Source of the DNA: a virus
Lineage: Duplodnaviria; Heunggongvirae; Uroviricota; Caudoviricetes
DNA length: 48,484 nt
IMG/VR virus record: IMGVR_UViG_2737471860_000008
Coordinates: 1-48,484 of that record
Direction: 5' to 3' (one strand)
Below, in pieces: positions 1,690 to 47,416 of this stretch. The first letter of the stretch is position 1; the number at the start of each line of letters is the position of its first letter. Both the position numbers and the translations under genes were made by a program. The notes beneath the pieces are model-generated. The model saw only the letters and a program-made list of their open reading frames with translations, ran no database searches and was not told the origin of the DNA.

Positions 1690-1704
1690 TGGTGTCCCCT
1701 GCAG
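1690..1704. repeat. attR core (distal copy of 15-bp att repeat TGGTGTCCCCTGCAG)
   Basis: Exact 15/15 match to 47402-47416; flanking bases differ on both sides. Confidence 0.8.
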
Positions 1705-1763
1705 ACATCTACTTGAAGCGGCAGGGGATTGATTGGAATGGTATTTTTTAGATGTGAGAAATA

Positions 1764-1783
1764 TTTTACCCGCTATTTTACCC
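1764..1783 (+). promoter_or_regulatory. Two direct TTTTACCC repeats (putative integrase/RDF arm-type sites) near attR
   Basis: 8-mer TTTTACCC at 1764-1771 and 1776-1783; same 8-mer (both orientations) clustered at the int-proximal end 47241-47284. Confidence 0.4.
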
Positions 1784-1978
1784 ATTGGCGCGGCTTAAGA
1801 GCTTATTTTTGAATTCACAATGGTCACGATATAACCATCTTGCTCGCCCGTGGATAACTTTGGCTTTAGGCAGGTCGCCGGACTTAATCCGGTCATAGAT
1901 GAAGGTTTTACCAAAGCCAGTATCAGCCATGATGAATTTCAAATCAACCAGTGAATCAGGTTGTAGTTCGTGTTGCAT
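1778..1978 (-). CDS. torI: AlpA/TorI-family excisionase (recombination directionality factor), 66 aa
   Basis: Small HTH protein with AlpA-type motif (MADTGFGKT...IY...GDLPKAKV..GRARW) placed directly beside att; matches my recollection of K-12 TorI. Confidence 0.7.
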   Translation of the reverse strand: MQHELQPDSLVDLKFIMADTGFGKTFIYDRIKSGDLPKAKVIHGRARWLYRDHCEFKNKLLSRANG

Positions 1979-2020
1979 GAGTACTATCTCCGAATAGGGA
2001 ATCGAACCTGCAAATCAGGT

Positions 2021-2044
2021 AATAAAAAACCGCCATCAGGCGGC
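2021..2044 (-). terminator. Rho-independent terminator (minus strand)
   Basis: Hairpin CCGCC-ATCA-GGCGG followed on the minus strand by a T-run (TTTTTTATT); lies just 3' of the 55-aa ORF. Confidence 0.5.
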
Positions 2045-2203
2045 TTGGTGTTCTTTCAGTTCTTCAATTCGAATATTGGTTACGTCTGCATGTGCTATCT
2101 GCGCCCACAGCATCCAGTGGTCGTAGCAGTCGTTGATGTTCTCCGCTTCGATAACTCTGTTGAATGGCTCTCCATTCCATTCTCCTGTGACTCGGAAGTG
2201 CAT
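2036..2203 (-). CDS. Small hypothetical protein, 55 aa (not in ORF track, below 60 aa)
   Basis: ATG at 2203 preceded by GGAG SD (ggagatga-ATG); ORF ends in the terminator hairpin; hand-translated MHFRVTGEWNGEPFNRVIEAENINDCYDHWMLWAQIAHADVTNIRIEELKEHQAA. Confidence 0.35.
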   Translation of the reverse strand: MHFRVTGEWNGEPFNRVIEAENINDCYDHWMLWAQIAHADVTNIRIEELKEHQAA

Positions 2204-2275
2204 TTATCATCTCCATAAAACAAAACCCGCCGTAGCGAGTTCAGATAAAAGAAATCCCCGCGAGTGCGAGGATTG

Positions 2276-2560
2276 TTATTCATTGTCGATATTAATCTTT
2301 ATCGCGAACACCTTTACCGGTTTATCACCGAAGTGCGGATGTGTGATTGTCTTGATTTCATATCCGTCATACGGAACATCAATTCTACGGCTGGAATCGT
2401 CGCGCTTCGGATATCCCTTTGTGATAATCAGGCGGTCATACTTACGGTTAACGAGGCGCTTATTCCAATAGTCATTACACAGGCGATACTCTTCCGTTTT
2501 CTCCCCGCGAATCATGGCATCGAAGCATTCACCTTTGACGGCAAGTTGCAGGTTAGCCAC
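2276..2560 (-). CDS. Hypothetical phage protein, possibly ASCH/PUA-like (DUF3850-like), 94 aa
   Basis: Pattern KGECFDAMIRGEKTEEYR...YDRLIITKGY resembles ASCH-type small domains; assignment by eye only. Confidence 0.45.
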   Translation of the reverse strand: MANLQLAVKGECFDAMIRGEKTEEYRLCNDYWNKRLVNRKYDRLIITKGYPKRDDSSRRIDVPYDGYEIKTITHPHFGDKPVKVFAIKINIDNE

Positions 2561-2840
2561 GACCTTCCTCCTTTGGCTTGTGAATTTGTATCGTCATGCC
2601 GCTTTGAGTGGTGACTACAATGACAGAACCAGGCTGAAGGCTGTTAAGATTGAATGCTTCGTAAAACGAATCCAATGCCAGTGCTTTTTTATTCTTTCTG
2701 TTCCACCAACGCCACCCCTTGCTACAGGCTACACTGACAATCCACTGCCCACTCCTGTAAGCCATATAAAACCAGATGAGCAAAACCTGAAGGAATGCTA
2801 TCCAGTCAATAATCGTATATTTCGCGAAGGAGTCCATCAC
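2553..2840 (-). CDS. Small predicted membrane protein, 95 aa
   Basis: N-terminal hydrophobic stretch (IIDWIAFLQVLLIWFYMAY) then basic WRWWNRKNKK; overlaps neighbours by a few bases (operon-like). Confidence 0.5.
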   Translation of the reverse strand: MMDSFAKYTIIDWIAFLQVLLIWFYMAYRSGQWIVSVACSKGWRWWNRKNKKALALDSFYEAFNLNSLQPGSVIVVTTQSGMTIQIHKPKEEGRG

Positions 2841-3616
2841 TTCACCTCCTGCTGCGGTGCTGCTGGCATTTCACGCCAGTGCGTAACTGAGTGCGGATCC
2901 GGATATTCAGTGCCATCATCCCAGCGATTGCCATTCCACATTGCAGACCACATCTCACCGTCTTCATACATGACCATTACCGGAATTAACTTATCCGGCA
3001 TCCGCTCACTACAGCTTATCCAACCATCCGGAGTTACCGGAGAGTTGCCATTTACATCGAAGTTTGGCTCTGCGTCCTGAACCAGGAGGATGTAACCATT
3101 CTTGGCAGTATCAAGTTCTAACGCCTCGGTGACGGTACCGAAATAGCGATTACCTAAATCCGCATCACAAGTGCTTACATCAATGGAAACCTCCATGCCT
3201 TCGATTAATTCTGGCAAGTTGTAAGTTTGGCTTACAGGTTCGGCACCATGAAGCATGGCAGCACGGCAGGCGTTCCAGCCAGCTGTTCGCCCAAGCGAGT
3301 AAACTTCAGATGGCTCAAGATAATCAATGTCATGCCCGTCCTCATCGTCGTTCTCAGGTAATGCAGCAGGTACTACTGGTACTGGCGGAGCGGCGTAGAC
3401 TTCAATAATCCCATTATCAATAGGCCATTCTCCATCCTTGAGGTAGTCACTTGTGCCGTCAACTTGCTGTTCAGCAATGTGGAATGCACCAACTGGCTCT
3501 GCCTCAAGCGAGGCCAGTGCAATCCGTGCCAGTTCCATTTGTTCGCCACGGGTAAGTCCGTTATCAAGCGGATTTTTAATGAATAATTCGATACGTTCTT
3601 TGGTTATAGCGCTCAT
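2837..3616 (-). CDS. Phage protein with C-terminal DUF551-like domain, ~259 aa (start moved to MSAITKERIE)
   Basis: AGGAG SD before ATG at 3616; C-terminal W-rich motif (MWSAMWNGNRWDD...VTHWREMP) typical of DUF551. Confidence 0.55.
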   Translation of the reverse strand: MSAITKERIELFIKNPLDNGLTRGEQMELARIALASLEAEPVGAFHIAEQQVDGTSDYLKDGEWPIDNGIIEVYAAPPVPVVPAALPENDDEDGHDIDYLEPSEVYSLGRTAGWNACRAAMLHGAEPVSQTYNLPELIEGMEVSIDVSTCDADLGNRYFGTVTEALELDTAKNGYILLVQDAEPNFDVNGNSPVTPDGWISCSERMPDKLIPVMVMYEDGEMWSAMWNGNRWDDGTEYPDPHSVTHWREMPAAPQQEVK

Positions 3617-3617
3617 A

Positions 3618-4568
3618 TCACTCTCCTTTGATGCGAATGCCAGCAAGCCAGTTTCTTATGCCGATATATTCAGCGTTCCTGAAACCGCTTTTTACATATA
3701 TAAATGGCAAGCGAAGATTGTGACCATTGGCTGCCAGGTAGTCTTTACAACCCTGTTCGGTGAAACAGCAGGTAACGAATTCATCAATATCTTTCACAGC
3801 AACGCGCCGCCATTTTTCTGGTGGCTCTCGAAAGTTTTCGTGAAGTAGTTCGAGACGACGACTTTGGCGTTTATTGGCTTCATTGCCATCTTCATCAACC
3901 CAGACAATCCGGTCATAGTCATAATCAGCATCAACAACGATTTCGCGCTTTTGATACACACAAAACATGGGATCTGACGTTATTCGATTGTCCTGTGTCC
4001 GAATATTTTCACCGATGATGCCAAACGAATCTGGTGCAGATTTTGTCTGCATCTCTCCGATACGTTCAGCCATCGCAGCACACTCTTCAAAGTTGCTTAA
4101 TGCTTTTCGCTCCCATTCAGCGCATTGTTTTTCCAGTTCTGCAATGCGCTTACCTCCATCCGCGATTACTCCATCGTAATACTCACGCTGCTCGTTGAGT
4201 TTTGATTTTGCTGCTTCAAGCTCAACACGCAGCTTCCCTACCGTTAGCGCAATTTCCTCGTTCTCCTGGTCGCGGGATTTGATGTATTGCTGGTTTCTTT
4301 CCCGTTCATCCAGTAGTGCCAGCACGGTAGCCGGACTGGCTGCGGCGATGAATTCAGCATTGGCCTGCTGTTCCATTTGGAAATCTTCATCGAAACCGCT
4401 TTCTGGATGAGCTCCTTCAATTCTGCAAATGGGGATATATCCAGCAGCCTCGCGATGAATTAGCGCATCATCACCATCAAATCGGCCCTCTCCATATTCG
4501 AGCGACCACACACCACACGTTGCTTTTTCTGCCTTAGCACGCAGTGCCTGATAATCAATCTGGCTCAC
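3618..4568 (-). CDS. Ea22/Ead-like early protein, 316 aa
   Basis: N-terminus [19 protein letters not shown] resembles the Ead/Ea22-like domain of lambdoid early-left operons; central coiled-coil. Confidence 0.55.
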   Translation of the reverse strand: MSQIDYQALRAKAEKATCGVWSLEYGEGRFDGDDALIHREAAGYIPICRIEGAHPESGFDEDFQMEQQANAEFIAAASPATVLALLDERERNQQYIKSRDQENEEIALTVGKLRVELEAAKSKLNEQREYYDGVIADGGKRIAELEKQCAEWERKALSNFEECAAMAERIGEMQTKSAPDSFGIIGENIRTQDNRITSDPMFCVYQKREIVVDADYDYDRIVWVDEDGNEANKRQSRRLELLHENFREPPEKWRRVAVKDIDEFVTCCFTEQGCKDYLAANGHNLRLPFIYVKSGFRNAEYIGIRNWLAGIRIKGE

Positions 4569-4809
4569 TGGTTGCCTCCTGCTTTTCTGCCTTCAACACC
4601 ATGCGAGAACCATCATCCAGCTCCCACGCGATCTCACCACCTTCAACCATGACCAGTCGCCACACCAATTGAGCAGCCTCATTGGTAACATCACGACCTG
4701 GATCATTGCCAACGCGCATACGTCCACCTTCAACATCGCGCATTTTTGCCAGCATGATAGTTTTTGATAGCGGTGAAAAACCAAGCTGTAGTCGTGCGGA
4801 ATTACTCAC
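4555..4809 (-). CDS. Hypothetical early protein, 84 aa
   Basis: ORF in operon context, overlapping stop/start with neighbours. Confidence 0.4.
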
Positions 4810-5006
4810 TGCTTGCCTCCTTTACGCCACATCGCATTCAGATATTTGTTTTGATTCACTGATGGAAAAGAATTTCTCTTAAGCAATTCCTCTCTCGATG
4901 GCATTGGCTTTACGCGTTGGCGAATAATCATTTCTGCCGGAAGAATGCCGGGATTGTATGCAAGTCCTCTCATTGTAAATTCCTCAGTCATTACTGATAG
5001 CGCCAT
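4806..5006 (-). CDS. Hypothetical early protein, 66 aa
   Basis: ORF in operon context. Confidence 0.35.
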
Positions 5007-5280
5007 AGCGTGAGCGGTAATTACGCAGGCGCGGGTCGATATATTCAGGGAAGTGGGTATATGTGGATTTGCGGAATGGTCGGATTGATGTTTCGTTTAT
5101 TCGGTCTTTTTCCTGTTTTTCTGCGAGTTGTATATCGCGTCGGTACTTCCGTTCTTCTTTTGTTTCTGGTGGCAGAGCAAGAAACGCGTCGAGATTATTC
5201 TTGATATTTTCCAGCACCTCAGATATGGAATTGCCGGAACAGCGGCGCGGGTCGTCCGCACCATATAGAGGCGCTGGCAT
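4984..5280 (-). CDS. Hypothetical early protein, 98 aa
   Basis: ORF in operon context. Confidence 0.4.
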
Positions 5281-5296
5281 GGTTTTCTCCTGTTGA

Positions 5297-5845
5297 TTAT
5301 TTAGCTAACTTTTTCCAGATCGCTGAAACGTATTTGGCTTGGTGGATGGCATCATCAAGCGCGTTGTGGCGAGTTCCTTTGAATGGCATATCTCGCTTAG
5401 GATCGAATCCTATTACCTTCCCAAGTTCGACGATTGTTCTTACGTCGCGGTCATTCCACCACTGCCACGGAACTGGCTGCCCTGTCAGCGAATAACTGTT
5501 GCGGAGAATAACGCAGTCAAATGATGCTCCATTCCCCCAAACCTGAACGAGTTTGTGGTTGGCGTTCTTTATGATGAATTCAGATAACCATGAAAGAGCC
5601 GTTGAAAGCTCCTGAGTGTTGCTGGTTAGCGATTTTCTGGCTTCTTCACTCTGTTCCAGCCACCATAAAATCGTTGAAGCGTCAGGACGCGCCCGATATC
5701 GCATTGATGACTCAAGCGAGATATTTACCGAGAACTCTTCTCCTGTTTCTCCGGTATTCGGGTCAAAGAATACCGCCCCAATAGAAATAACTGGCGCGTA
5801 TGGCCCGTTGCCCATTGTTTCAAGGTCAACCATCAAGTGATTCAT
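5297..5845 (-). CDS. DnaQ-like 3'-5' exonuclease (DEDDh), 182 aa
   Basis: Exo I motif VDLETMG, Exo III motif H-NALDD near C-terminus; sits with SSB and annealing protein. Confidence 0.7.
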   Translation of the reverse strand: MNHLMVDLETMGNGPYAPVISIGAVFFDPNTGETGEEFSVNISLESSMRYRARPDASTILWWLEQSEEARKSLTSNTQELSTALSWLSEFIIKNANHKLVQVWGNGASFDCVILRNSYSLTGQPVPWQWWNDRDVRTIVELGKVIGFDPKRDMPFKGTRHNALDDAIHQAKYVSAIWKKLAK

Positions 5846-5853
5846 GTAAGTCC

Positions 5854-6360
5854 TTAAATTGCGTGAATAGCGTGACGAGGGAAGGGGAGAGTTACTGGTG
5901 CAAAGGGTATATCGTCGTCAAAATCCATCGGAGGTTCGTTGTGTTGTGCTGGTGATGATTGCTGCTGTGGCTTCTGCGATTGCCTGCTGGCTGCTTGTTG
6001 TTTGCTGTCGCCAATTCCGCCAAGCATTTGCATCACGCCATTAATTCCGACATGAACCTCGGTTGTGTAACGGTCTTGCCCTGACTGGTCTTTCCACTTT
6101 CTGGTTCTCAGCATTCCCTCGAAATAAATCTGATCACCTTTTTTCACATACTGCCCCACGACCTCAGCCAGTTTCCCGGATACAGCAACACGATGCCATT
6201 CAGTCAATTCCTTTTGCTCGCCAGTATTTTTATCTCGCCATTGTTCTGACGTGGCTATTGTCAGGTTAGCGAACGCTGTACCTGATGGTGAGTATCGAAC
6301 TTCCGGGTCTTGTCCTACCCGACCAAGGATAATCACCTTATTTACGCCTCTGCTTGCCAT
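5854..6360 (-). CDS. ssb: Single-stranded DNA-binding protein, 168 aa
   Basis: OB-fold N-terminus ([18 protein letters not shown]), Gln/Pro-rich linker, acidic tail DFDDDIPF. Confidence 0.9.
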
Positions 6361-7068
6361 TTATGCCGCCTGTTTTAGTTCGTTAACTCTGATGTTCATT
6401 ACCTGAACGCATTTAGCCTGCGCCTCCTCATTGCCAGCCATTAATTGCCAGTCACGCTGATAACGCTCGATGAGTTTTTTCTTGTCAGTTTCTGTTGACA
6501 CATAATCGCTGAAGTCTTTCAGGATTTGTTCGCAGTCAACCGATGGAGATTTCTGGTTGGTATTTTCTGGTGATGGTTTGTTATCTGATGCTGGTATTGC
6601 CCATCCCGGCAGCGATGGAGGGAGCCAGTAAAATCCTGTTCCATCCTTGAGTTTTGCCCTGTGCCATCCCTGCTTTTTATCGAGAGATGTTTGTGCGAAA
6701 CCTTCCTCAAGGTTATACAGATACCTACCGATTCCCCACTGAACGGCAGCGCGCTTCATTGCACCGGAACGACCACCTTTGACGGCTTCTACCTGCGTGT
6801 TTTCAGCAGCATCCCATTTGGTTACCCATTCGGAATCAATCTTGATTGATATGCCGCATTCAACTCCGCCGTTGTTGGGAATATCGCGGTATTCATTGCG
6901 CCATCCTGCTTTGCCGCAAACATCGTCCAGGCGTTTCATGATTGCCCGGTTCGTGACATAAGCCAGCACCATAGCCCACACCTTGCCATCGCGTGTTTTA
7001 CCGCTTTGCTGTATTCGCCATTCGATATCTTCAGGGCTGAATGGCTCATCGAATTTGTTCAAATCCAT
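6361..7068 (-). CDS. Rad52/Sak-like single-strand annealing protein, 235 aa
   Basis: Recombination-module position next to SSB and exonuclease; N-terminal region resembles Rad52-family phage SSAPs (by eye). Confidence 0.55.
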   Translation of the reverse strand: MDLNKFDEPFSPEDIEWRIQQSGKTRDGKVWAMVLAYVTNRAIMKRLDDVCGKAGWRNEYRDIPNNGGVECGISIKIDSEWVTKWDAAENTQVEAVKGGRSGAMKRAAVQWGIGRYLYNLEEGFAQTSLDKKQGWHRAKLKDGTGFYWLPPSLPGWAIPASDNKPSPENTNQKSPSVDCEQILKDFSDYVSTETDKKKLIERYQRDWQLMAGNEEAQAKCVQVMNIRVNELKQAA

Positions 7069-7167
7069 AATTCACCTCAGAATGGACACGGTCCAAGGAA
7101 ATAACGCTGATTTAATACTTCTACTCGGGACAAATTAAGGCATACCCGCATTCCTTCGCGGTCGCCA

Positions 7168-7326
7168 TTATGGCGATACCAGAGAGCTTTCTGCGTGTAC
7201 ATGCGTCTCTGTAACTTGCTCTCCTTCACTGTGGTTGCAAGTGACATGAATATCTCCTTCGTTACCGATTAATTCTTTCATCTGACGAATGAATTCTTCG
7301 TCTGACCAGTTATCTGTAAAACTCAT
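7168..7326 (-). CDS. Small hypothetical protein, 52 aa (hand-called)
   Basis: ATG overlaps stop of upstream small ORF (ATGA); MSFTDNWSDEEFIRQMKELIGNEGDIH... Confidence 0.3.
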   Translation of the reverse strand: MSFTDNWSDEEFIRQMKELIGNEGDIHVTCNHSEGEQVTETHVHAESSLVSP

Positions 7327-7475
7327 TTCCTGCGATACCACGGAAGGTTGATAGCTGATTTCATCGCTTTATTTGCTTCAAGCCACATTTTTGAATCACC
7401 AATAAATCTGGCTATTACTGCTTTGTTCTGTGCAGCACGAAGCATCTGGTGATTGATGGCTATTTCATTGCGCAT
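7323..7475 (-). CDS. Kil-like small protein, 50 aa (hand-called)
   Basis: GAGG SD; MRNEIAINHQMLRAAQNKAVIARFIGDSKMWLEANKAMKSAINLPWYRRK resembles lambda Kil central motif (IATFIGDEKMF). Confidence 0.4.
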   Translation of the reverse strand: MRNEIAINHQMLRAAQNKAVIARFIGDSKMWLEANKAMKSAINLPWYRRK

Positions 7476-7615: not shown

Positions 7616-8584
7616 TTAGTAGGTTATTTTTGTTGCGAATACTTCGCCTTTTACGATGGCTGTTATGATATTTTTAGCAACATCTTCTGATGCGCCAACC
7701 TTGATAAGGTCAGCAAGTATTTTGTTATTTACTTCTTTCCGGTGAGCTTTATCCTTTGCTCTACGCTCTTCTTCTTCCTTGATTCTTTTTTCTTCTGCTA
7801 TTCTGGCTTGCTCTTTTGCTTCAGCCTCGCGCCGGATTCGTTCAGCCTCCTCCTGTGCTTTTCGGCGTTCTGCTTCAATTGCCGCCTGCTTTTCTCTTTC
7901 AGCTCGTTCTGCTGCCTCTTTTGCTTCGCGCTGTGCTCGTTGCTCGGCTTCAATGCGTTCACGCTCTGCACGTTCCGCTGCGGCCTTAGCTTCTGCTTCT
8001 CGCCTTGCTGCTGCTTCAATTTCGGCTTTTGCCTTTGCTTCGGCTTCTGCTCTGGCTCTCTCTTCAGCTTCTCTTTTTAAGCGTTCTTCATGCTCTCGCT
8101 TTTCCCGCTCCGCTTTGAGTCTTGCCTCTTCTCTTTGGCGGTCAAATTCGCGATCCATCAAAATCGCTATTTCATGGTCAGACTCAATTTGCTTTGCGAG
8201 AGCTTCAGCTGCTGCCTTAGCTTCTTCTTCGGCTTTAATCCGTGCCTGTTCTTCCTCATAATCAGTAAGAGGCTGGCGTGCCTTGGCTTTCAGCTCATCA
8301 AGGCGATCGCGCACTGTCTTGCGGTTGGCATCAATTAGCTTTGGAATTTCCTTCAGTTCAGCAACAAGGTCTTTGCCAAGACCATCGAGATATGTTTTCG
8401 TCTGCGCAACTTTATACGCCAGAGAAGCGATCTCCTTTCTGCCCTTTGCCGTTGTGATATCAGGCACAAAGGACATAACTTCACGTTCAACCTTTTGAAT
8501 GATTTCTTCAATCTGGTCGGCAGACTGAAATACAGTCATTGCATTTGCTTTTTCAATAACAACTAAATCTGTTACTTCACTCAT
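7616..8584 (-). CDS. Phage protein with long charged Glu/Ala/Lys/Arg coiled-coil (DUF1351-like?), ~322 aa
   Basis: Start moved to ATG 8584 (GGAGG SD, immediately after terminator); about 180 aa of EAKAKAE/REAEER repeats. Confidence 0.55.
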   Translation of the reverse strand: MSEVTDLVVIEKANAMTVFQSADQIEEIIQKVEREVMSFVPDITTAKGRKEIASLAYKVAQTKTYLDGLGKDLVAELKEIPKLIDANRKTVRDRLDELKAKARQPLTDYEEEQARIKAEEEAKAAAEALAKQIESDHEIAILMDREFDRQREEARLKAEREKREHEERLKREAEERARAEAEAKAKAEIEAAARREAEAKAAAERAERERIEAEQRAQREAKEAAERAEREKQAAIEAERRKAQEEAERIRREAEAKEQARIAEEKRIKEEEERRAKDKAHRKEVNNKILADLIKVGASEDVAKNIITAIVKGEVFATKITY

Positions 8585-8592
8585 ATATCCTC

Positions 8593-8625
8593 CATCAAAA
8601 AAAATCGCCCTCACATCGGAGGGCA
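8593..8625 (-). terminator. Rho-independent terminator in the leftward early operon (tL-like)
   Basis: Minus-strand hairpin GCCCTC-loop-GAGGGC followed by TTTTTTTT. Confidence 0.6.
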
Positions 8626-8760
8626 AAGAAGACTTCCAATAATCAGAACAAGTCGGCTCCTGTTTAGTTACGAGCGACATTGCTCCGTGTATTCACTCGT
8701 TGGAATGAATACACAGTGCAGTGTTTATTCTGTTGTTTGTGCCAAAAATAAAGGCCACTA

Positions 8761-39637: not shown

Positions 39638-39638
39638 C

Positions 39639-40386: not shown

Positions 40387-41079
40387 ATGGTAAAGATTAA
40401 AATGAAAACTTCAATTATGCTTGCTTTTTTATCAGTTTCGTTGTGCGCAGGAAGTTCTTTTGCAGCTTCTTTTGATTGTAATAAATCAAAAAATTTTGCA
40501 GAAAAAACAATTTGTTCTGACAAGAAATTATCAGAAGATGATGAGGTTCTTGCTAAGGTTTATAATCTTGCAAAGAAAGTTGCGCATAATAAAAATGGGT
40601 TCGATAGGCTGACAAAAGATTTATGGGACTCAAGGGATTTGTGCACCGACTACAAATGCATTAATGATTGGTATGATACTGTATTTGTTGCGTATGATTC
40701 TGTTATAAAAACAAATGCAAGCGATGAGGTTTTGAATAATATTCAGAAAAAATATGATGAGTCAATAACGCAGAAGCCAGCAATAAGCAACGGAGCTAAA
40801 AACAAAAAAGAAGCTAAAGATTATAGTTTATACGATTCAAAAGACAGAGCCGCGCCAGTTGAACATAACGCAATATTATACAAAGACACTCCAGAGGCAT
40901 TCGAATTTATAGATACACTTGTTGGGTTTGTCAGACAAAGCTCTTACAAATGTGACTCTGTTAGCTCTTTCATACCCATGGTTTCATCTAATGGATTTAC
41001 GCTCGCATGTAATAAATTCAGCTACAAATATGAAATTAAAAACAACGGCGGAAATGTCTCTGTTTCTGTAGATAATTAA
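40387..41079 (+). CDS. AT-rich moron: secreted DUF1311 (LprI-like lysozyme-inhibitor fold) protein, 230 aa
   Basis: Signal peptide MKTSIMLAFLSVSLCAGSSFA; DUF1311-type motif FDCNKSKNFAEKTICSD..L...D..L...Y; AT-rich versus neighbours; own terminator. Confidence 0.6.
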   Translation: MVKIKMKTSIMLAFLSVSLCAGSSFAASFDCNKSKNFAEKTICSDKKLSEDDEVLAKVYNLAKKVAHNKNGFDRLTKDLWDSRDLCTDYKCINDWYDTVFVAYDSVIKTNASDEVLNNIQKKYDESITQKPAISNGAKNKKEAKDYSLYDSKDRAAPVEHNAILYKDTPEAFEFIDTLVGFVRQSSYKCDSVSSFIPMVSSNGFTLACNKFSYKYEIKNNGGNVSVSVDN

Positions 41080-41174: not shown

Positions 41175-44087
41175 ATGGCACTAACCCTTTTGGCTACAAA
41201 CAACGCAGAAAGCACGCTGGCTTCTGCTATCAGCGCTACCGACACGTCGCTGATCGTTAGCGCTGGAACTGGTGCCGAGTTCCCTGATGCTGTGGCAGGC
41301 GAAAGCTACTTTAAGCTTACGATCACCGATGCCGCCACCGGCTCTCAGGTTGAGATCGTGAACGTGACAGCCAAGGCTGGTGACATCTTCACGATTGAAC
41401 GTGCGCAGGAAGGAACGCTGGCTCATGCGTGGGCGGCCAACGATATGGTTGCCAACATGATGACGGCGGATACGCTGAACATTATCGCTCAATATGCCCA
41501 GCAGGCAGCTGCATCAGCAGCACAGGCTGAAGAGTATGCAAATAACGCTTCTGACTATGCACAGAATAAGTTCACGTTCTATAAAACCTCAAGCGATCCA
41601 GATGGCACCATTGCAGGTCTGGCAGCGACTACTGACGGCCAGTCTTTCTGGGTAGCCCAGGGTCCGGATGCGCTTTCTGCTGCATGGCAGTATCAAAACA
41701 AAGCAGGCGTGGCCGTATTGCAGGCAAAGCAACCAGGCACAGCGGCTATAACAGGGACAATCCGCGAATTTCCGACGTTGGCTGCGGCGCAGGCTGATGC
41801 AGATGCCGGCAACATTCCTGTCGGGTCAACTGCGTATTACCGCAGCGCTGACGACGCAACTCTTGCGATTGAGGTTGTTAACACCGCAGGAACGCTGCAG
41901 CCTACCGGACGAAAAATGCCATCCGCAATGCCAATGGGTTACCAGTCTGCTACAGCTGTGAGTAGCGGTGCGGCTAATACCATTGCTATCACTATCCCCG
42001 GATTATTAGTGGATGGCAGTTTGATTTATTTCCTGTCTCCTATTTTGAATACGGCGGCTGTTAGCGTTACCGTGACAGATGCCAGGGGGAACTCGGTTAC
42101 TCGGGCAATACAGAAACAAAATAATGCAGCTTTAGTTGGGAATGAGTTGCTTCTCAATCAGCCCGCACTGATGGAATTCCGCACTGGGACTGCTAACAAT
42201 TTTGTCCTTGTGGCATCCGGCCCGGTAGCCGCTGAACTTGCGTCAAGAATTTCCACGCTTGAATTAAATAGCGTAGCGTTATTGTCTGGCGTTGCTAATT
42301 CTGGAGATGCCTATTCCGGCACCGCATCTACAATCCCTGGACTTGTTGCATCTGATCGCGTCTTTCTTTTTACGCCAAGCGCCACCAATACAACCCGTAC
42401 ACCAACTCTTTCCGTTAATGGTGGAACGGCAAGGCAGATTAAGCAAAATAACGGGACCAGCGTCGCTGCTGGAGATTTTGTAGCGGGATACACGTATTTA
42501 ATCAAATTTAATTTTTCATCAGCAGATTTTCGGATGCTGACCTACCCGGCTGACAGAAGTCGCGTACTTAATGGTTATTCAAAGGCAACTGTTACCAGCG
42601 ATGCTACCAGTCCTAACTCGGTAGCATTAACAATTCCCGGGTTACTTGGCGATGGAACTCAGCTTACTTTTGAGCCGGTTGTTGCAAATACCGGTGCTAT
42701 GACTTTGGTCATCACCGATATGTACGGTAACACAGTCACGCGTAACTTATTCAAAGGGGCTAATACTGCGCTAACTGGTGGAGAGCTGCGGGCGGCAATG
42801 CCAGCCACTGTGCAATACCGTGGCTCTCCGCAGAATAACTTTAAGCTGTTGTATGCCGGTGATCCAACCACGGATATACAGTCCCTCTCAAAAGACGTTA
42901 CGACCCTCAAGGGGGCGCTGACAGACCCGTATGCAGCACTGGCCGATAAACTTGTGGGCACCGGAGTGTCAACAGATCAGTCACCGTTCGGTACCATCAC
43001 CTGGTCCGCGGGAGTTAAGACCGTCACAAAGCGCCAGATAATTTGTACGTCTATCGGGTCTTCTGTGGGCGTTGGGGCGGGCTCTACTGGCGGCGGCGTT
43101 GCCGGTGCTCCTTATGCTCCGAACACGCTGTTTGTCAATGCCTTAAAAGAAGAGCTTAAGCAGTATGGTCAGTTCGATATTATTGATGATAACCAGTGCA
43201 TACCGACCCAGGCATTCCAGCAGTTCGCTGCCCAGCTCGCGAATTCGCCTTATTCAACCTCCGACTTTGTTTTGATCGTGGGGGGGATGAATGATGCACC
43301 AGTTGGTAACTACAATATGGGGCGCACATATCCGGGTCAGCAAACGACGCTTGAGGCTCTTGTCGACCTGTGCCTGGCACGTGGCGCTATTCCCATCATC
43401 TGTACGACTCCGCACCATAACGTAGAAATGCCTCAAACTTACCCGACAATACCAGGAGGGCAGCCTTTATTGTGGCCTTATCGCACATATAACGTAGGAC
43501 CGACAACAACTTATGCATTTGACTCTTCTTCAAAGACGATAACGCAAGGGGCGTTCGCAAACCCACTGTATGGGGGTAATATTCTCAAGCCAGGACACAC
43601 ACTGCATGTAGCAAGTGGCGCGAATGCTGGAGATTATACAATTGCGTCTATTTCATCTGACCGAACAGTAATAACAGTTGTAGAACCGATACCATCTACT
43701 ACTTCCTATGCCACCACCATCACGCAAACCAACCTGAACAGCATTATTGAGGACATACTGGAGCCGCCCCCATCCACATCTTTTGTCACAAAGGACTGGA
43801 GCGGAAGCGGCGTGAAAGTTTTGGGCGATGTGAGATTCGAGTCAGTAAACATGATGCAACGTACAGTGGCTCGCCAAAAAAATGCATTTTTGGCCGACTG
43901 TGAAAAGTCGTTCTTTAAATACGGCGTGGAGGTGGGCGGGTACTCGTCGGTATATAACGTCCCGGTTGGGAACTATAACCACATGAACGATAACGGGTAC
44001 ACAGTCACATTCGACTACACACTGAAAGTTGCGGCAAGAAAAATAGCCAATCTTATTTTTGGCGATAAATATTACTCTGCAGCATAA
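41175..44087 (+). CDS. Tail fibre/tailspike, ~970 aa, with SGNH/GDSL-like esterase domain (start moved to MALTLLATNN)
   Basis: GGAGGAG SD before ATG 41175; conserved fibre N-terminal domain; central region with GSS...GGMNDA...PHH blocks resembling SGNH hydrolases. Confidence 0.7.
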   Translation: MALTLLATNNAESTLASAISATDTSLIVSAGTGAEFPDAVAGESYFKLTITDAATGSQVEIVNVTAKAGDIFTIERAQEGTLAHAWAANDMVANMMTADTLNIIAQYAQQAAASAAQAEEYANNASDYAQNKFTFYKTSSDPDGTIAGLAATTDGQSFWVAQGPDALSAAWQYQNKAGVAVLQAKQPGTAAITGTIREFPTLAAAQADADAGNIPVGSTAYYRSADDATLAIEVVNTAGTLQPTGRKMPSAMPMGYQSATAVSSGAANTIAITIPGLLVDGSLIYFLSPILNTAAVSVTVTDARGNSVTRAIQKQNNAALVGNELLLNQPALMEFRTGTANNFVLVASGPVAAELASRISTLELNSVALLSGVANSGDAYSGTASTIPGLVASDRVFLFTPSATNTTRTPTLSVNGGTARQIKQNNGTSVAAGDFVAGYTYLIKFNFSSADFRMLTYPADRSRVLNGYSKATVTSDATSPNSVALTIPGLLGDGTQLTFEPVVANTGAMTLVITDMYGNTVTRNLFKGANTALTGGELRAAMPATVQYRGSPQNNFKLLYAGDPTTDIQSLSKDVTTLKGALTDPYAALADKLVGTGVSTDQSPFGTITWSAGVKTVTKRQIICTSIGSSVGVGAGSTGGGVAGAPYAPNTLFVNALKEELKQYGQFDIIDDNQCIPTQAFQQFAAQLANSPYSTSDFVLIVGGMNDAPVGNYNMGRTYPGQQTTLEALVDLCLARGAIPIICTTPHHNVEMPQTYPTIPGGQPLLWPYRTYNVGPTTTYAFDSSSKTITQGAFANPLYGGNILKPGHTLHVASGANAGDYTIASISSDRTVITVVEPIPSTTSYATTITQTNLNSIIEDILEPPPSTSFVTKDWSGSGVKVLGDVRFESVNMMQRTVARQKNAFLADCEKSFFKYGVEVGGYSSVYNVPVGNYNHMNDNGYTVTFDYTLKVAARKIANLIFGDKYYSAA

Positions 44088-44096
44088 GGAATTATC

Positions 44097-44384
44097 ATGG
44101 CCTTTAAACTATCAGCAGTAAAAACTGTCCAGATTTATTATCTCGGAGGATTTCTGTGTGATAAGGATATCAATATTGACCTTATTTACTCAGTAGAAAG
44201 CGTCAGGCAGGATGATGCAGGTCAAGTTAAAGCCTCAGTCTCCGTTAGATATAATGATGCGGCGAAAGTTAACGCAGGAGAGTATGCGGTAACTCTGGAC
44301 GCATCGTCATCGAAGCCGTGGGCAGAACAGGCTGAACAGCAACTCATGCAAGCTGAAGAGTTTGCTGGGGCTGTTGTCCTGTAA
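44097..44384 (+). CDS. Hypothetical protein downstream of the fibre gene, 95 aa
   Basis: ORF with SD (AAGGAA); function unknown. Confidence 0.4.
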   Translation: MAFKLSAVKTVQIYYLGGFLCDKDINIDLIYSVESVRQDDAGQVKASVSVRYNDAAKVNAGEYAVTLDASSSKPWAEQAEQQLMQAEEFAGAVVL

Positions 44385-44414
44385 GCACAAAAAACCTACG
44401 CAGACTGAACGAGG

Positions 44415-44457
44415 TTGACCTTCCCTCTCAATAAAACTACTGTATATAAAAACAGTG
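44415..44457 (+). promoter_or_regulatory. SOS-type promoter: -35 TTGACC, 17-bp spacer, -10 TACTGT overlapping a LexA box TACTGTATATAAAAACAGTG
   Basis: CTGT-N8-ACAG palindrome at 44440-44455 fits the LexA box consensus TACTG(TA)5CAGTA. Confidence 0.65.
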
Positions 44458-44475
44458 TTTATCGGAGGGCAGATC

Positions 44476-44715
44476 ATGCTTCGACAGTCAGACATCGCCG
44501 CGGCTTTCCGCGAGTCGGTTTTGCGCAGCTCTAAGGGGTTCCAGTACCTTCACACCCGCGACTTTGTTAGCGCGCTGCGCCAGCATGGCATCCACTTTTC
44601 CGAGGTGGAAGCTAACGCCTGGATAGCGCGCGAGCAAACGTATTTCGTCGATAAGACGCCTGACCATAGCGAAAACAGGCTGTGGATGATGGCCAACATG
44701 GGGAGGGTTTTGTAA
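44476..44715 (+). CDS. Hypothetical small protein, first gene of LexA-box operon, ~80 aa
   Basis: GGAGGG SD 6 nt before ATG 44476; stop overlaps next start (TAATG). Confidence 0.55.
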   Translation: MLRQSDIAAAFRESVLRSSKGFQYLHTRDFVSALRQHGIHFSEVEANAWIAREQTYFVDKTPDHSENRLWMMANMGRVL

Positions 44716-45032
44716 TGGGCTTTCCATCACCGGCAACGGACTATACCGAACAGCGGCTGACCGTTAACTCGATCTGTAATGTCGGGCCAAATACTCGCCT
44801 TTACGAAAGGGATGGTGGTTATGTTGTGCTGGATATCTCCCTGAAGCCAAAGCAGGGAAGCCAGCTGCTTATCCATCACGGTGGCGGGACGGAACTTGCC
44901 ACGCTGAGAGGAAAGTCACTGATAACCGATGATGGCGAAGCGATCGAGGGGGATGCTCTGGACGATGTCACTGTCATTGGTGTCGTGACATTTACTATCT
45001 GCGATGTTCGTTCTGATAATTCTATTATTTAA
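44715..45032 (+). CDS. UmuD-prime-like protein (S24-like fold, catalytic Ser apparently absent), ~105 aa
   Basis: Starts MGFPSPATDYTEQR, matching the post-cleavage N-terminus of UmuD (GFPSPAADYVEQR); C-terminal VIGVV block conserved; no GDSM serine motif. Confidence 0.6.
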   Translation: MGFPSPATDYTEQRLTVNSICNVGPNTRLYERDGGYVVLDISLKPKQGSQLLIHHGGGTELATLRGKSLITDDGEAIEGDALDDVTVIGVVTFTICDVRSDNSII

Positions 45033-45043
45033 CTGGGGTATAT

Positions 45044-46075
45044 ATGGCGCTGAAGCTATTAGCCAATAATAACGCAAAGAGTGTGCTCGCTGCGGGTATT
45101 AGCGCGTCCGCTACCGTTATTACCGTGGGTACTGGAGCGGGGTCTTTATTCCCTTCCCCTGTATCTGGGCAGAGCTATTTCAAATTAACGATAACCGACG
45201 CGGCCACGAAAACAATTTCCGAAATTATGCACGTCACGTCTGTATCTGGTGACGTGATGACAGTAATTCGTGGTCAGGAAGGAACTACGGCACGCGTATG
45301 GTCAACGAATGACATTGTCGCGAATTTAATGACCGCCGGGTCATTATTATCTTTCCTGCAGATCAGTAATAACCTGTCAGAAATTAAAGATGCTGGTGAT
45401 GATGCGGTAAATGAAGCCCGTTATAACCTCGGAATATCTGATTCCTCTGGTTTTGTCGGTCGTTCACTTGGCGCTCCAAAAGTTTTCTATGCAAACGGAA
45501 CCTATACGCGATCTCCTCTGGCCCGTTATGCAAAAGTAACGTTGACAGGTGCCGGTGGCGGCGGTGGCGGCTGCCAGGCCTACAACAATACAGAAACCTT
45601 CTCCGGTGCTGGCGGCGGCGCGGGCGCGACCATTATCGTATGGGTTGACCTGTCTGCTGCCAGTTCTTATGCGATTACTGTCGGCAAGGGTGGTAAGGGC
45701 GGAGTTGGCGCAGTAAGTGGTGCAGATGGTGGGGCCACCTCGTTTGCCAGCCTGTTCTCAGCTCCTGGCGGGAAAGGCGGCGTGAAGTCAGGCGTGTCCA
45801 ATACCGCCGGCGGCGCCGGAGGTACGGCGGCGACCGGAGATATCAGGATCAACGGTGGTACCGGCTCAGATGGACAGACAGGCTCAAGCCTTCTGACGGG
45901 CAACGGCGGGGCGTCGTATTTTGGCGGCGGTGGCCGGGCGGGTTCTCAGGCCGGTATTGCTGGCGCAGCTCCCGGATCCGGTGGTGGTGGCGCGTATGAC
46001 CTTGGGTTTACCGGTGCGGCATTTACCGGTGGTGATGGTGCTACTGGCATGGCGATCGTGGAAGAATTCGCGTAA
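45044..46075 (+). CDS. Second tail-fibre protein with Gly-rich C-terminal domain, 343 aa
   Basis: N-terminal ~105 aa paralogous to the N-terminus of the 41175 fibre (…YFKLTITDAAT…QEGT…); C-terminal GGGGxG-rich repeats. Confidence 0.65.
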   Translation: MALKLLANNNAKSVLAAGISASATVITVGTGAGSLFPSPVSGQSYFKLTITDAATKTISEIMHVTSVSGDVMTVIRGQEGTTARVWSTNDIVANLMTAGSLLSFLQISNNLSEIKDAGDDAVNEARYNLGISDSSGFVGRSLGAPKVFYANGTYTRSPLARYAKVTLTGAGGGGGGCQAYNNTETFSGAGGGAGATIIVWVDLSAASSYAITVGKGGKGGVGAVSGADGGATSFASLFSAPGGKGGVKSGVSNTAGGAGGTAATGDIRINGGTGSDGQTGSSLLTGNGGASYFGGGGRAGSQAGIAGAAPGSGGGGAYDLGFTGAAFTGGDGATGMAIVEEFA

Positions 46076-46079
46076 TGGC

Positions 46080-47240
46080 TTACACTCCTGCACGACCATC
46101 GATGTAATCAGCCCACCACTGCATCATTTCTCTGCGCTTATCGAGATACTGAGCATGGTTGTAAATTCCGCGCACAGATCCGCCGTTGGCATGTGCAAGT
46201 TGCACTTCAATAGCATCAGCAGGCCATTCGTGCTCGTTCATAATCGTGCTGAATTCATGCCTGAATCCGTGACCGCTTTCCAGACCCTCATAGCCGATTT
46301 GTTTGATCACAAGCAATACCGCGTTCTCGCAGATTGGCTTCTTCTTATCGTTGCGTCCGGCAAAAACAAACTCTGATACTGGTTTAGTGATGGAGCTTAG
46401 CGTAGTGAGAAGTTCAACCACCTGGTCCGACATCGGGACCACATGAATCTTGCGTCCCTTCATCACGCTGGCGTCGATGGTGATAATCCTGTTTTCAAAA
46501 TCGACGTTCTTCCATAGCATGGAACGAAGCTCTTTCGTTCTTAGGGCTGTGTAGCGTAAAACTTTGGTCGCAATGAGCGATACGATACTTCCTGAAAATG
46601 TTGCCAGTGCTTTGTTGAATGCCGGGATCTGGTCTGCAGGAAGAAACGGGAAGTTCTTCTTGCGGTATCCTTTCATGGCGTCAGCAAGGTCAGGTGCCGG
46701 GTTATATTTAGCCCTGCCGGTGACAATAGCGTAACGGAAAACCTCGCCGCATCTTCTGCGGGCTTTGTTGGCTCGCTCCATTGCACCGCGATCTTCAAAT
46801 CTGCGGATTACTTCCAGTAGTTGCATCGGCTCAATATCCTGAATTTCAAGGCCGCCGATGATAGGTAAAATGTCGTCATCAAACATTTTTGCAAGTTCAT
46901 TTGCATAGCCTACTGACCAGACTTGCTTCTTGTGCTCGTACCATTCCTTGTAAATCGCACTAAATGAATTGTTGTTAGACGAAGCCTTTTTCGCCTTTAC
47001 CGGATCGATGCCAACCGAGATGTCTTTCCTCGAAGTCCATGCCTTATCCCTTGCCTCCTGCAAAGTCATTAGCGGATATTTTCCTACGGTTAGGACTTTC
47101 TCCTTACCGTCAATCTTGTAGCGAAGCTGCCATACCTTTTTCCCGGATACAGGGACATAAAGGTACAGTCCATTACCATCGAGAAGGCGGTATGGTTTTT
47201 CTTTCGGCTTTGCTGCTTCAATCTGCTTAACGGTGAGCAT
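46080..47240 (-). CDS. intS: Tyrosine integrase (IntS/P4-type), ~386 aa (start at MLTVKQ; alternative GTG at 47276)
   Basis: C-terminal catalytic region with R...H..R...Y pattern (HGFRHEF...RGIYNHAQY); adjacent to tRNA; matches my recollection of K-12 IntS. Confidence 0.85.
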   Translation of the reverse strand: MLTVKQIEAAKPKEKPYRLLDGNGLYLYVPVSGKKVWQLRYKIDGKEKVLTVGKYPLMTLQEARDKAWTSRKDISVGIDPVKAKKASSNNNSFSAIYKEWYEHKKQVWSVGYANELAKMFDDDILPIIGGLEIQDIEPMQLLEVIRRFEDRGAMERANKARRRCGEVFRYAIVTGRAKYNPAPDLADAMKGYRKKNFPFLPADQIPAFNKALATFSGSIVSLIATKVLRYTALRTKELRSMLWKNVDFENRIITIDASVMKGRKIHVVPMSDQVVELLTTLSSITKPVSEFVFAGRNDKKKPICENAVLLVIKQIGYEGLESGHGFRHEFSTIMNEHEWPADAIEVQLAHANGGSVRGIYNHAQYLDKRREMMQWWADYIDGRAGV

Positions 47241-47284
47241 GGGTAAAAATCCGGTGGGTAAAATTATTTTATCCACTTTTTACC
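47241..47284. promoter_or_regulatory. Cluster of GGGTAAAA/TTTTACCC repeats upstream of int (putative arm-type sites)
   Basis: GGGTAAAA at 47241-47248 and 47256-47263, TTTTACCC at 47277-47284; same 8-mer twice near attR. Confidence 0.4.
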
Positions 47285-47401
47285 CGTCATGTAGTGCGGC
47301 TGTCAACGATCTGACGCGAACCATGACGAACTGTAAATCTACGGAAGGCTTGATATTCAGGGGATTTTACGGACTGGTACGGATTGGAGCGAACTGATAA
47401 A

Positions 47402-47416
47402 TGGTGTCCCCTGCAG
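47402..47416. repeat. attL core (copy of the 15-bp att repeat, part of argW 3' end)
   Basis: Exact match to 1690-1704. Confidence 0.8.

Follow-up and report, generated by a model that had tools for sequence, protein, structure and literature searches.

A very probably complete mosaic temperate prophage at argW joins a KplE1/HK620-type recombination module and a lambdoid early region to a Felixviridae-type virion module

The window analysed here, a stretch of 48,484 nucleotides, very probably holds one complete temperate phage genome, mosaic in composition and integrated through IntS at the 3' end of the E. coli argW tRNA gene. As the first-pass annotation had proposed, the prophage looks full length, with 45,712 bp between two 15-bp cores, and every module of a temperate phage is present between the repeats. 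The mosaic has three parts: a KplE1/HK620-type recombination module (IntS, TorI and the att arms), a lambdoid early and regulatory region with a P22-type C2 repressor, Cro, operators and N, and a conserved Felixviridae virion module of ~21 kb, predicted to specify a particle with a contractile tail, after which come two receptor-binding proteins. The lambdoid part also takes in an HK620-type O and a DnaB-like P with ori iterons, the nin region, Q, two tRNAs and an S-R-Rz/Rz1 lysis cassette.

Integration site and recombination module

1..1248, plus strand: host cscB (sucrose permease), left flank; complete ORF, called sucrose permease/oligosaccharide MFS transporter in matching records
1690..1704: left att core, the displaced argW 3' end, equivalent to K-12 pawZ
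1705..1777: excisionase-proximal att arm; 71/73 identical to K-12, colinear with HK620 attP
1778..1978, minus strand: excisionase/recombination directionality factor TorI (HkaC)
46080..47240, minus strand: tyrosine integrase IntS; arm-binding, central and catalytic Pfam domains
47241..47401: integrase-proximal att arm; 156/161 identical to K-12, colinear with HK620 attP
47402..47476, minus strand: argW tRNA-Arg(CCU); carries the right att core as the last 15 nt of its 3' end (47402-47416)
47552..48484, minus strand: host yfdC, right flank; so named in matching genomes

The 15-mer core, TGGTGTCCCCTGCAG, is found exactly twice in the window, at the two positions first reported for it (1690-1704 and 47402-47416), and in none of 100 shuffles. 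ARAGORN and Rfam agree on a minus-strand tRNA-Arg(CCT) at 47402-47476, whose 3' end is the right core, as had been claimed. This tRNA has the same sequence as K-12 argW, and the K-12 annotation calls the displaced 15-nt copy pawZ. The proposed host flanks, cscB and yfdC, appear in matching genomes as an 'oligosaccharide MFS transporter' and yfdC. Following the suggestion that the flanks be aligned to an unoccupied argW locus, we rebuilt the empty site from window positions 901-1704 and 47417-48200 with a single core copy. The resulting 1,588 bp matched many E. coli genomes in one piece at 100% identity over the full length, and at least 80% of it was covered in 1,411 of 5,426 genomes. Joining the prophage ends, in turn, gave the attP of HK620 (245/251 identical, no gaps).

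The annotation of an IntS-type integrase abutting the tRNA and a TorI/AlpA-type excisionase abutting the other repeat also held, the former being identical to K-12 IntS at 376/381 residues and the latter, of 66 aa, to TorI at 66/66. The K-12 proteins perform excisive recombination in vitro, and the module is common to unrelated argW phages (PMC3509656). IntS would have inserted the phage into the argW 3' end, with the end of the tRNA rebuilt from the phage core. Complete phages that use argW are already known, namely HK620, Sf6, CUS-3 and Stx2 phages.

Relationship to KplE1/CPS-53

The K-12 site had been said to hold only a remnant of ~10 kb, which is indeed 10,215 bp long, and the prophage had been called an intact relative of this element, KplE1/CPS-53. 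That second claim failed, as the similarity is confined to the recombination module. An intact or ancestral-type copy, from a lineage that decayed to the 10-kb K-12 remnant, would fit the shared integration site and core, the TorI at 100%, the IntS at 99% and the att arms at ~97%, but we consider such descent very unlikely. With BLASTN against K-12, only yfdC-argW-intS (97.1%) and torI with the att core (98.2%) matched, and a TBLASTX search of the KplE1 interior (yfdG to ypdJ) against the window gave no match. This interior, made up of gtr genes, tail-fibre assembly remnants and yfdM-yfdT, instead matches Shigella phages of the SfIV, SfV and SfII type (67% cover, 93% identity), and the recombination module itself is the one found in unrelated argW phages. 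Taken together, BLASTN, TBLASTX and the Shigella-phage matches refute kinship with KplE1 at the whole-genome level. K-12 has a 16-nt core against one of 15 nt here, a difference that stems from the host flank (csc genes here, dsdC in K-12).

Early, immunity, replication and lysis genes

2036..7475, minus strand: early-left operon (Pfam); ea-type genes (DUF4752, DUF551, Ead/Ea22, DUF7446, DUF2737), Abc2 anti-RecBCD, DEDDh-type exonuclease, SSB, Rad52-type annealing protein and Kil
7616..8680, minus strand: 354-aa protein, phrog_1376; labelled 'TolA' or coiled-coil protein in relatives
8761..8961, minus strand: ral (restriction alleviation); Pfam Ral, 1-66 of 66, E 1.2e-47
9040..9411, minus strand: N-type antiterminator; Arg-rich, Pfam N_peptide, 88% identical to HK620 N
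9759..9835: OL operators, P22 type; consensus at 9759-9776 (exact) and 9794-9811 (1 mismatch)
9877..10527, minus strand: prophage repressor, P22 C2 type; HTH domain and S24 self-cleaving domain (Pfam)
10528..10593: OR operators; 3 sites of P22 type, all exact, separating the repressor gene from cro
10608..11195, plus strand: cro (P22_Cro) and cII (Pfam)
11367..13692, plus strand: replication genes O and P, the latter for a DnaB-like helicase; both 98-99% identical in aa to their HK620 counterparts
11761-11787 and 11827-11853: ori iterons inside O, at the position of the annotated HK620 rep_origin
13777..18256, plus strand: nin region; Lar-like protein, NinB, NinD, NinE, split ninF, Roi/KilAC antirepressor, YbcO and RusA (Pfam)
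15232-15834, plus strand: free-standing HNH/NUMOD4 endonuclease in the nin region (Pfam)
16150-16259 and 16799-16859, plus strand: 5' and 3' parts of ninF, from alignment with HK620 ninF
16260..16798, plus strand: AT-rich insertion of 539 bp in ninF, from the same alignment
16292-16798, plus strand: HNH_3 endonuclease ORF inside the insertion (Pfam HNH_3, E 1.2e-19)
18300..18788, plus strand: Q late antiterminator (Pfam Phage_antitermQ)
18880..19035, plus strand: phage-borne tRNA-Asn(GTT) and tRNA-Thr(TGT); same pair in the STEC346 relative
19206..20453, plus strand: lysis cassette of holin S, endolysin R and Rz
20206-20412, plus strand: Rz1 lipoprotein, embedded in the lysis cassette

The repressor N-terminal domain matches the P22 C2 repressor structure (PDB 1adr, E 3e-37), and its translation shows Ala-Gly and GDSM motifs. 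The true start of the N-type antiterminator is probably an internal Met, and no clear cIII was identified in the prophage. The cultured phages HK75, mEp235 and mEpX2 encode an SSB 100% identical to the one here, and a PADLOC search with the 354-aa protein returned no match. The GC content of the ninF insertion is 35%, against 50.5% for the prophage. ninF had been singled out as the sole visibly damaged gene; it is indeed split by the HNH endonuclease insertion, and we found no other broken gene. ninF lies in the dispensable nin region of lambda, as established by lambda genetics with the nin5 deletion.

A Felixviridae-type virion module

20511..28378, plus strand: packaging and head genes (Pfam, PHROGs); TerS, TerL, portal, head-morphogenesis protein, 286-aa protein and major capsid protein
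24844-26457, plus strand: NUDIX-prohead protease fusion (Pfam, PHROGs)
28451..40343, plus strand: connector, tail and baseplate genes (PHROGs, Pfam); probable tube protein, chaperone, tape measure with SLT domain, baseplate hub and baseplate J; 89-100% aa identity to Chronis, full length
30722-32116, plus strand: sheath-like protein (PHROGs, Pfam)
40387..41079, plus strand: accessory gene within the tail module, lipoprotein-like; RefSeq relatives carry the name 'LprI family'

By its sequence, the virion half belongs to the Felixviridae, a family named only recently and of the contractile-tail type; this affiliation went unnoticed in the first reading. Window positions 21255-41923 (20.7 kb) are 95.5% identical to Klebsiella phage vB_Kpn_Chronis (MN013086; Felixviridae, Maevirinae, Chronisvirus chronis), which was isolated from sewage (PMC7163006). 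From TerS to the tail-module lipoprotein (20511-41079), each of the 24 proteins aligns over its full length and colinearly with Chronis, at 88-100% identity except for TerS (70%). Positions 20456-41467 are 97.4% identical to the argW prophage of E. coli CUVET20-416 (NZ_CP098870), and both published Felixviridae PCR primers match perfectly (24868-24888 and 26435-26455). PHROGs labels in the module include sheath, baseplate hub and baseplate wedge. The sheath-like protein is 81% identical to that of Yersinia relatives, which are mitomycin-inducible and myoviruses by electron microscopy (PMC9224151). The lipoprotein-like gene is 98-100% identical in CUVET20-416, Chronis and STEC346.

41175..44087, plus strand: tailspike, 970 aa; conserved N-terminal anchor and divergent C-terminal part
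44097..45032, plus strand: three small accessory genes (PHROGs, NCBIfam)
44682-45032, plus strand: HumD/UmuD'-like protein, among these three (PHROGs, NCBIfam)
45044..46075, plus strand: second receptor-binding protein, a glycine-rich tail fibre (Pfam Gly_rich_2, tail-fibre PHROGs)

The tailspike and the tail fibre have the same N-terminal anchor. In the numbering of the 989-aa ORF at 41118-44087, residues 140-989 of the tailspike, with its receptor-binding part, run colinearly at 87% with an ORF that is open in Lambdavirus PDP110P1, and the C-terminal part has a weak GDSL/SGNH esterase match. Among the accessory genes, 44097-44384 matches only PDP110P1, and RothC and E. coli relatives have conserved copies of 44455-44715 and 44682-45032.

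Proposed life cycle and alternative explanations

The repressor would keep OL and OR shut until SOS-triggered self-cleavage leads to transcription that depends first on N and then on Q. TorI and IntS would then recombine the cores, rebuilding attP and attB, O and P would replicate the genome, and TerS, TerL and the portal would package ~45.7 kb, matching the 45,702 bp of Chronis. We infer that the prophage would be inducible and infectious. Frameshifts or premature stops in essential genes, named at first pass as grounds for rejecting intactness, were looked for and none was found; intactness was judged here from open, full-length ORFs, a method to which missense and regulatory defects are invisible.

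There is an appreciable, if minority, chance that the prophage is complete in appearance and yet cryptic, with a missense, regulatory or packaging-site defect that blocks induction or the formation of infectious particles. A mobile endonuclease gene does disrupt ninF, and decaying relatives exist: in E. coli elppa10 the tape measure is frameshifted and baseplate J is in fragments, and the KlebPhaCol authors raise the possibility that many felixvirus prophages are deteriorating. We also found no circular or attP-joined copy; the exact tailspike sequence is on only 1 other contig, where the prophage is integrated, and the IMG/VR relatives likewise look like integrated prophages. Against a defect stand the full-length virion proteins with their close match to a cultured phage, the intact operators, origin, lysis cassette and recombination module, and the genome size shared with Chronis.

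We regard it as extremely unlikely that the window combines a resident HK620-like remnant with an incoming Felixviridae phage, or is an assembly chimera. The closest relatives do switch sharply near 20.5 kb, from HK620, Sf6 and IME10 on the left to Chronis on the right, and coverage of the early region stays at or below 60% in every complete E. coli genome. A single genome is nevertheless favored: the core occurs just twice, there is one int-xis pair, every module appears once and in the canonical lambdoid order, and the total of 45.7 kb equals that of Chronis and RothC, both lambdoid in layout. The same lysis-to-TerS junction recurs in E. coli relatives, and a separately assembled public contig (Logan, run SRR2239602) matches at 100% identity along 17.3 kb, right junction included.

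Nearest relatives

Beyond the virion module, the single mosaic genome resembles Chronis in its overall lambdoid layout, an IntS-like integrase (85% aa), a TorI-like excisionase (86% aa), a related attP and a tRNA-Asn after Q. Chronis differs in its Klebsiella host, in the tailspike C-terminal part and in its early, immunity and replication genes, which are only 50-65% aa identical or unrelated; whole-genome similarity is ~52%, under the 70% genus line used by ICTV. HK620 is, with Sf6, CUS-3 and IME10, a P22-like podovirus that integrates at argW, and its attP, Int (97%), Xis (100%) and early-region gene order agree with the prophage, as do O, P, Roi, YbcO, S and R (95-99% aa identity). Its virion genes are entirely unlike, specifying a P22-type short tail rather than a contractile-tail Felixviridae module; immunity specificity also differs, and whole-genome similarity is ~21%.

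The argW prophages of CUVET20-416 and ~36 other complete E. coli genomes share the virion module, Q, lysis genes, fibre, intS and the argW site. They differ in the tailspike and in an early region with another repressor type, lambda-P-type replication, and intact ninF and ninX. Some of these relatives have decayed (elppa10) or are inserted elsewhere, next to torT (STEC346).

Integration module and junctions at argW

The prophage is a mosaic, itself new, in which three known parts are joined: the IntS/TorI module of argW, lambdoid early genes with P22-type immunity, and the virion core of the Felixviridae. At its two ends in the window we find:

1690-1704: left copy of the 15-mer att core TGGTGTCCCCTGCAG
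1778-1978, minus strand: excisionase adjoining the non-tRNA junction
46080-47240, minus strand: tyrosine integrase adjoining the tRNA-side junction
47402-47416: right copy of the att core
47402-47476, minus strand: tRNA-Arg(CCT)

The 15-mer occurs exactly twice in the window and not once in 100 shuffles of the sequence. ARAGORN and Rfam agree on the tRNA-Arg, so the right copy forms the 3' end of the tRNA, and the twin repeat described in the first-pass annotation is borne out by exact count and by both tRNA searches. The tRNA shows no differences from K-12 argW, and the K-12 counterpart of the displaced 15-nt copy is annotated as the pseudogene pawZ. The empty site, rebuilt by fusing window positions 901-1704 to 47417-48200 (1,588 bp), was searched for among 5,426 complete genomes of E. 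coli. Many carry the full 1,588 bp as a single piece at 100% identity, and at least 80% of it is covered in 1,411 of the 5,426; beneath the match lie cscB, an oligosaccharide MFS transporter gene, tRNA-Arg and yfdC. The W derivatives LY180 and KO11FL are examples of strains whose csc-argW site is unoccupied. This unbroken match to unoccupied argW, the comparison proposed at the outset, upholds the junctions to within the repeat. Fusing the prophage ends (47240-47416 to 1705-1778) rebuilds an attP that is identical to the annotated HK620 attP region at 245 of 251 positions, gapless.

The excisionase is identical to K-12 TorI at all 66 residues, and the integrase, which has three integrase domains, to K-12 IntS at 376 of 381. 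The non-coding att arms match those of K-12 at 156/161 and 71/73 positions (5 and 2 differences); their sequence is thus conserved, and they are predicted to carry IntS, TorI and IHF binding sites as in the KplE1/HK620-type module. Insertion at the 3' end of argW between direct cores, an IntS-type integrase and a TorI-type factor, the features that define this module, are all present. The module has already been described as common to KplE1, HK620, Sf6 and other argW phages (PMC3509656), and across the phage collection we found the same integrase region in podoviruses, Stx2 phages and others. Both argW as a prophage hot spot and the IntS/TorI module are already known, and the latter is well studied.

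The first-pass annotation had taken the element for what was apparently an intact relative of KplE1 (CPS-53), the 10.2-kb cryptic argW prophage of K-12. Membership of the same integration family (int, xis, att) stands, and the remainder of that claim does not. In BLASTN, the whole K-12 locus matched the window only at yfdC-argW-intS and at torI with the core, and TBLASTX found no match to the window for the KplE1 interior (yfdG to ypdJ). That interior (positions 3704-12300 of L003, the K-12 CPS-53 locus) finds its counterparts among serotype-converting phages of Shigella, namely SfIV, SfV and SfII (67% cover, 93% identity). On these grounds we reject any kinship beyond int, xis and att: the KplE1 link is confined to the recombination module, and the prophage does not represent KplE1 in intact form, tempting as it is to conclude this from a common integration site and integrase. 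The K-12 CPS-53 remnant itself looks like an SfIV/SfV-type phage that formerly carried the argW IntS/TorI module.

Lambdoid early region

The left half of the prophage (1690 to ~20450) consists of lambdoid early genes, in segments ~96% identical to HK620, Sf6, CUS-3, IME10 and mEp235; in a search with a 24-kb query, the best single record covered at most 42%. Pfam and PHROGs matches give the order ea-type genes, Abc2, exonuclease, SSB, Rad52-type annealing protein and Kil, followed by a 354-aa protein, Ral, N, repressor, Cro, CII, O and a DnaB-like P, and then by the nin region, Q, two tRNAs, S, R and Rz, with Rz1 embedded in Rz. The lambdoid order of int-xis-recombination-N-repressor-cro-cII-O-P-nin-Q-lysis-virion genes is thus found throughout, the N and Q antiterminators included. 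O and P share 98-99% identity with their HK620 homologs, and iterons lie within O at the same place as the annotated HK620 origin.

In its DNA-binding domain the repressor has a match to the solved structure of P22 C2 (PDB 1adr, e-value = 3e-37), its translation contains the Ala-Gly and GDSM self-cleavage motifs, and Cro is assigned to Pfam P22_Cro. Three exact sites for the 18-bp consensus, which we take to be that of P22-type operators at OL/OR, lie between the repressor gene and cro, with two further sites at OL. What was tested here is their clustering: five sites at OL/OR against 1.3 expected across the whole window. Together, the C2-type repressor, P22 Cro and clustered operators assign the prophage to the P22 immunity type.

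The SSB has an odd C-terminal extension past DDDIPF, and damage was rejected as its explanation because a 100% identical protein is found in the cultured phages HK75, mEp235 and mEpX2. We also observed a 39-aa hydrophobic ORF (MLDIMTNPILGGLVTTFAICFGFTIWSEVDDWMWERKNK) at 9380-9499 on the minus strand, between the OL/nutL region and N, which overlaps the longest N frame. Among the accessory genes, PADLOC found no defence system and just two weak domain-level matches.

Insertion in ninF

The nin region contains the following features:

15232-15834: free-standing homing-endonuclease-like gene between ninB and ninD
16150-16859: ninF, interrupted after codon 36
16260-16798: 539-bp insertion in ninF

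The insertion has a GC content of 35%, against 50.5% for the prophage, and carries its own ribosome-binding site and an ORF for a 168-aa HNH_3 endonuclease. Its flanks are colinear with HK620 ninF, which is uninterrupted around the candidate target sequence GAGCACTGCTGCGCAG, and deletion of the insert would restore the reading frame. We considered a group I intron as the source of the interruption and rejected it, since Rfam, searched at its gathering threshold and with the cutoff relaxed to E = 10, returned no group I intron match in the insert, and the non-coding part, just ~30 nt, leaves no room for a catalytic core. The interruption is an inserted free-standing HNH gene. It is absent from all 401 phage records that match the flanks, and it is found at the same position with at least 99% identity in 44 of the 5,426 complete E. 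coli genomes, where the downstream genes differ. This recurrence at one site amid varied downstream genes suggests that ninF is the target of a homing endonuclease gene. The region that contains ninF is dispensable according to established lambda genetics, as seen from the nin5 deletion. The gene between ninB and ninD encodes 200 aa at 40% GC, with NUMOD4, HNH_3 and I-HmuI-like domains.

Virion module and Felixviridae membership

The virion module (window 21255-41923, 20.7 kb) is 95.5% identical to Klebsiella phage vB_Kpn_Chronis (MN013086), and window 20456-41467 is 97.4% identical to the argW prophage of E. coli CUVET20-416 (NZ_CP098870). The Felixviridae, ratified as a family by the ICTV in 2025 (PMC12451628), include the genus Chronisvirus, of which Chronis is the type. 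Members share the core that defines the family, ~20.2 kb of conserved structural genes (gp1-gp24), and their genomes measure 40-60 kb (PMC12629751). Against Chronis, we find 24 colinear full-length proteins that preserve the gp1-gp24 synteny, and the prophage, at 45,712 bp, lies within the family's size range. Further, both published diagnostic Felixviridae gp7 PCR primers match without mismatch and face each other inside a single gene.

Proteins of the virion module and the databases that identify them
TerS, TerL, portal, head-morphogenesis protein, major capsid protein: Pfam, PHROGs
Sheath-like protein: phrog_205 (e-value = 7e-52)
Tape measure with lytic transglycosylase domain, baseplate hub, baseplate J: PHROGs, Pfam

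Individual sites in the module are:

22598-24013: portal gene (Phage_portal_3)
24844-26457: gene targeted by the gp7 primers
24868-24888, plus strand: first gp7 primer match
26435-26455, minus strand: second gp7 primer match
38219-39637: baseplate J
40387-41079: lipoprotein-like gene inside the tail module

A home-made VIRIDIC-like score, as distinct from the official VIRIDIC tool, gave an intergenomic similarity of 52% to Chronis, 42% to RothC and 21% to HK620. By the same score Chronis and RothC share 49%, and the published Maevirinae line is at least 45% to members. The genus line of at least 70% (Chronisvirus, Nakavirus) is missed at 52% and 42% on this home-made scale. With the published thresholds, these scores would place the prophage in the same family, probably in the same subfamily and in a different genus, and a separate genus would be needed for it.

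The sheath-like protein is present in just 14 phage records and is 81% identical at the protein level to that of the Yersinia vB_YenM_06.16-1 group, phages induced with mitomycin C whose contractile tails were seen by electron microscopy (PMC9224151). A sequence search of solved structures with this protein was uninformative. The KlebPhaCol paper (NAR 2025) reported structural matches of Felixviridae core proteins to a myophage assembly. Given the PHROGs and Pfam matches, the tails of the Yersinia relatives and these structural matches, a contractile-tail virion is the best inference for this prophage.

Several genes of the module carry names that deserve comment. The gene targeted by the gp7 primers, labelled in the literature as a hypothetical or putative virion protein, encodes a fusion: a NUDIX domain, its Nudix box complete, lies at the N terminus and is joined to a DUF2213/prohead-protease-like region. 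The protein is 100% identical to its Chronis homolog. The RefSeq homolog of the 22598-24013 protein (14099-15514 in L001, the CUVET20-416 prophage) is named 'anti-CBASS protein Acb1 family protein'. This name is probably misleading; the protein matches Pfam Phage_portal_3 (e-value = 2e-20) and its gene lies between TerL and the head-morphogenesis gene. A segment of baseplate J is scored as a ubiquitin-E1 FCCH domain (Pfam, e-value = 4e-14), hence the odd name that RefSeq gives the homologs; the segment is probably a small beta-barrel insertion with no ubiquitin-related function. The lipoprotein-like gene product has a signal peptide, is called 'LprI family' in RefSeq and is conserved at 98-100% in Chronis and the E. 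coli relatives. It had no PADLOC match, and the gene could serve lysogenic conversion or exclusion.

Receptor-binding cassette

After the core lie two receptor-binding proteins with a common N-terminal anchor, a 970-aa tailspike and a 343-aa glycine-rich fibre. The tailspike has a weak, below-threshold match to a GDSL/SGNH esterase, and its receptor may accordingly be an acetylated surface polysaccharide; a sequence search of solved structures matched only its N-terminal anchor. In Lambdavirus PDP110P1 a single colinear ORF corresponds to residues 140-989 of the tailspike, its variable part.

41514-46168: receptor-binding cassette (tailspike C-terminal part, three small genes, glycine-rich fibre)
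44455-45032: gene pair between the tailspike and the second fibre

The cassette (compared with L009 3001-7648) has 86.6% identity to part of Lambdavirus PDP110P1 and Wanchaivirus PDP110P2, from which it follows that it moves between phages of differing tail types. The gene pair, conserved in RothC and the E. coli relatives, encodes a 79-86-aa protein (phrog_3893) and a HumD/UmuD'-like protein, in which no GDSM serine motif was seen.

Completeness and activity

All 24 proteins from TerS to the lipoprotein-like product align end to end with Chronis, at identities of 88-100% with the exception of TerS (70%). No lesions were found in genes expected to be essential, and so the earlier reading of ninF as the sole visibly damaged gene, with essential genes free of frameshifts and stop codons, is sustained. 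The prophage length compares with 45,702 bp for cultured Chronis. With this length, a complete module set and the junctions upheld, the proposal of a full-length prophage at argW is confirmed, and the element is a temperate phage genome that is complete and, judged by its gene content, apparently without damage. In contrast, the argW relative in E. coli elppa10 (NZ_CP083478; L007 17753-23170) carries a frameshift in the tape measure gene and has its baseplate J gene in fragments, a prophage of this type in decay.

A search for free or circular copies found the exact tailspike on just one other public contig, in the integrated state. Over 17.3 kb, the right junction included, this contig (Logan, run SRR2239602) matches the window at 100% identity, and it presumably derives from the same strain. 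Related prophages in IMG/VR end at int, the tRNA and the host flank. According to the authors of the Felixviridae, most members are uncultured and lysogeny has been confirmed only for RothD. It is possible, if not quite probable, that the prophage represents a new Felixviridae genus in E. coli and is both inducible and infectious. If so, it would provide a genetically tractable E. coli model for the family because its P22-type immunity, HK620-type replication and K-12-type IntS/TorI recombination are all well understood.

Distribution

At least 80% of the virion module is covered in 37 of the 5,426 complete E. coli genomes, and IMG/VR holds ~30 related predicted prophages. In the KlebPhaCol survey, the hosts of Felixviridae prophages were exclusively Enterobacteriaceae, for the most part Klebsiella and Salmonella. 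The best matches among the 5,426 genomes cover at most 88% of the virion module (97.3% identity) and at most 60% of the early region, and the exact mosaic was not found among them. The conceptual gain is small, as mosaic lambdoid prophages are routine and both the site and the module are known. The value of the prophage is as an apparently undamaged E. coli representative of a recently defined family known mostly from Klebsiella and gut metagenomes, and its main worth is as a candidate E. coli model for the Felixviridae.

Three carriers of the virion module were examined, two of which have it at argW and one beside torT. The latter, the prophage of E. coli STEC346 (NZ_CP091044, L008), has the same Felixviridae virion module and the same tRNA-Asn/tRNA-Thr pair and ends beside torT, not argW, so the Felixviridae core in E. 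coli is not tied to one integration module.
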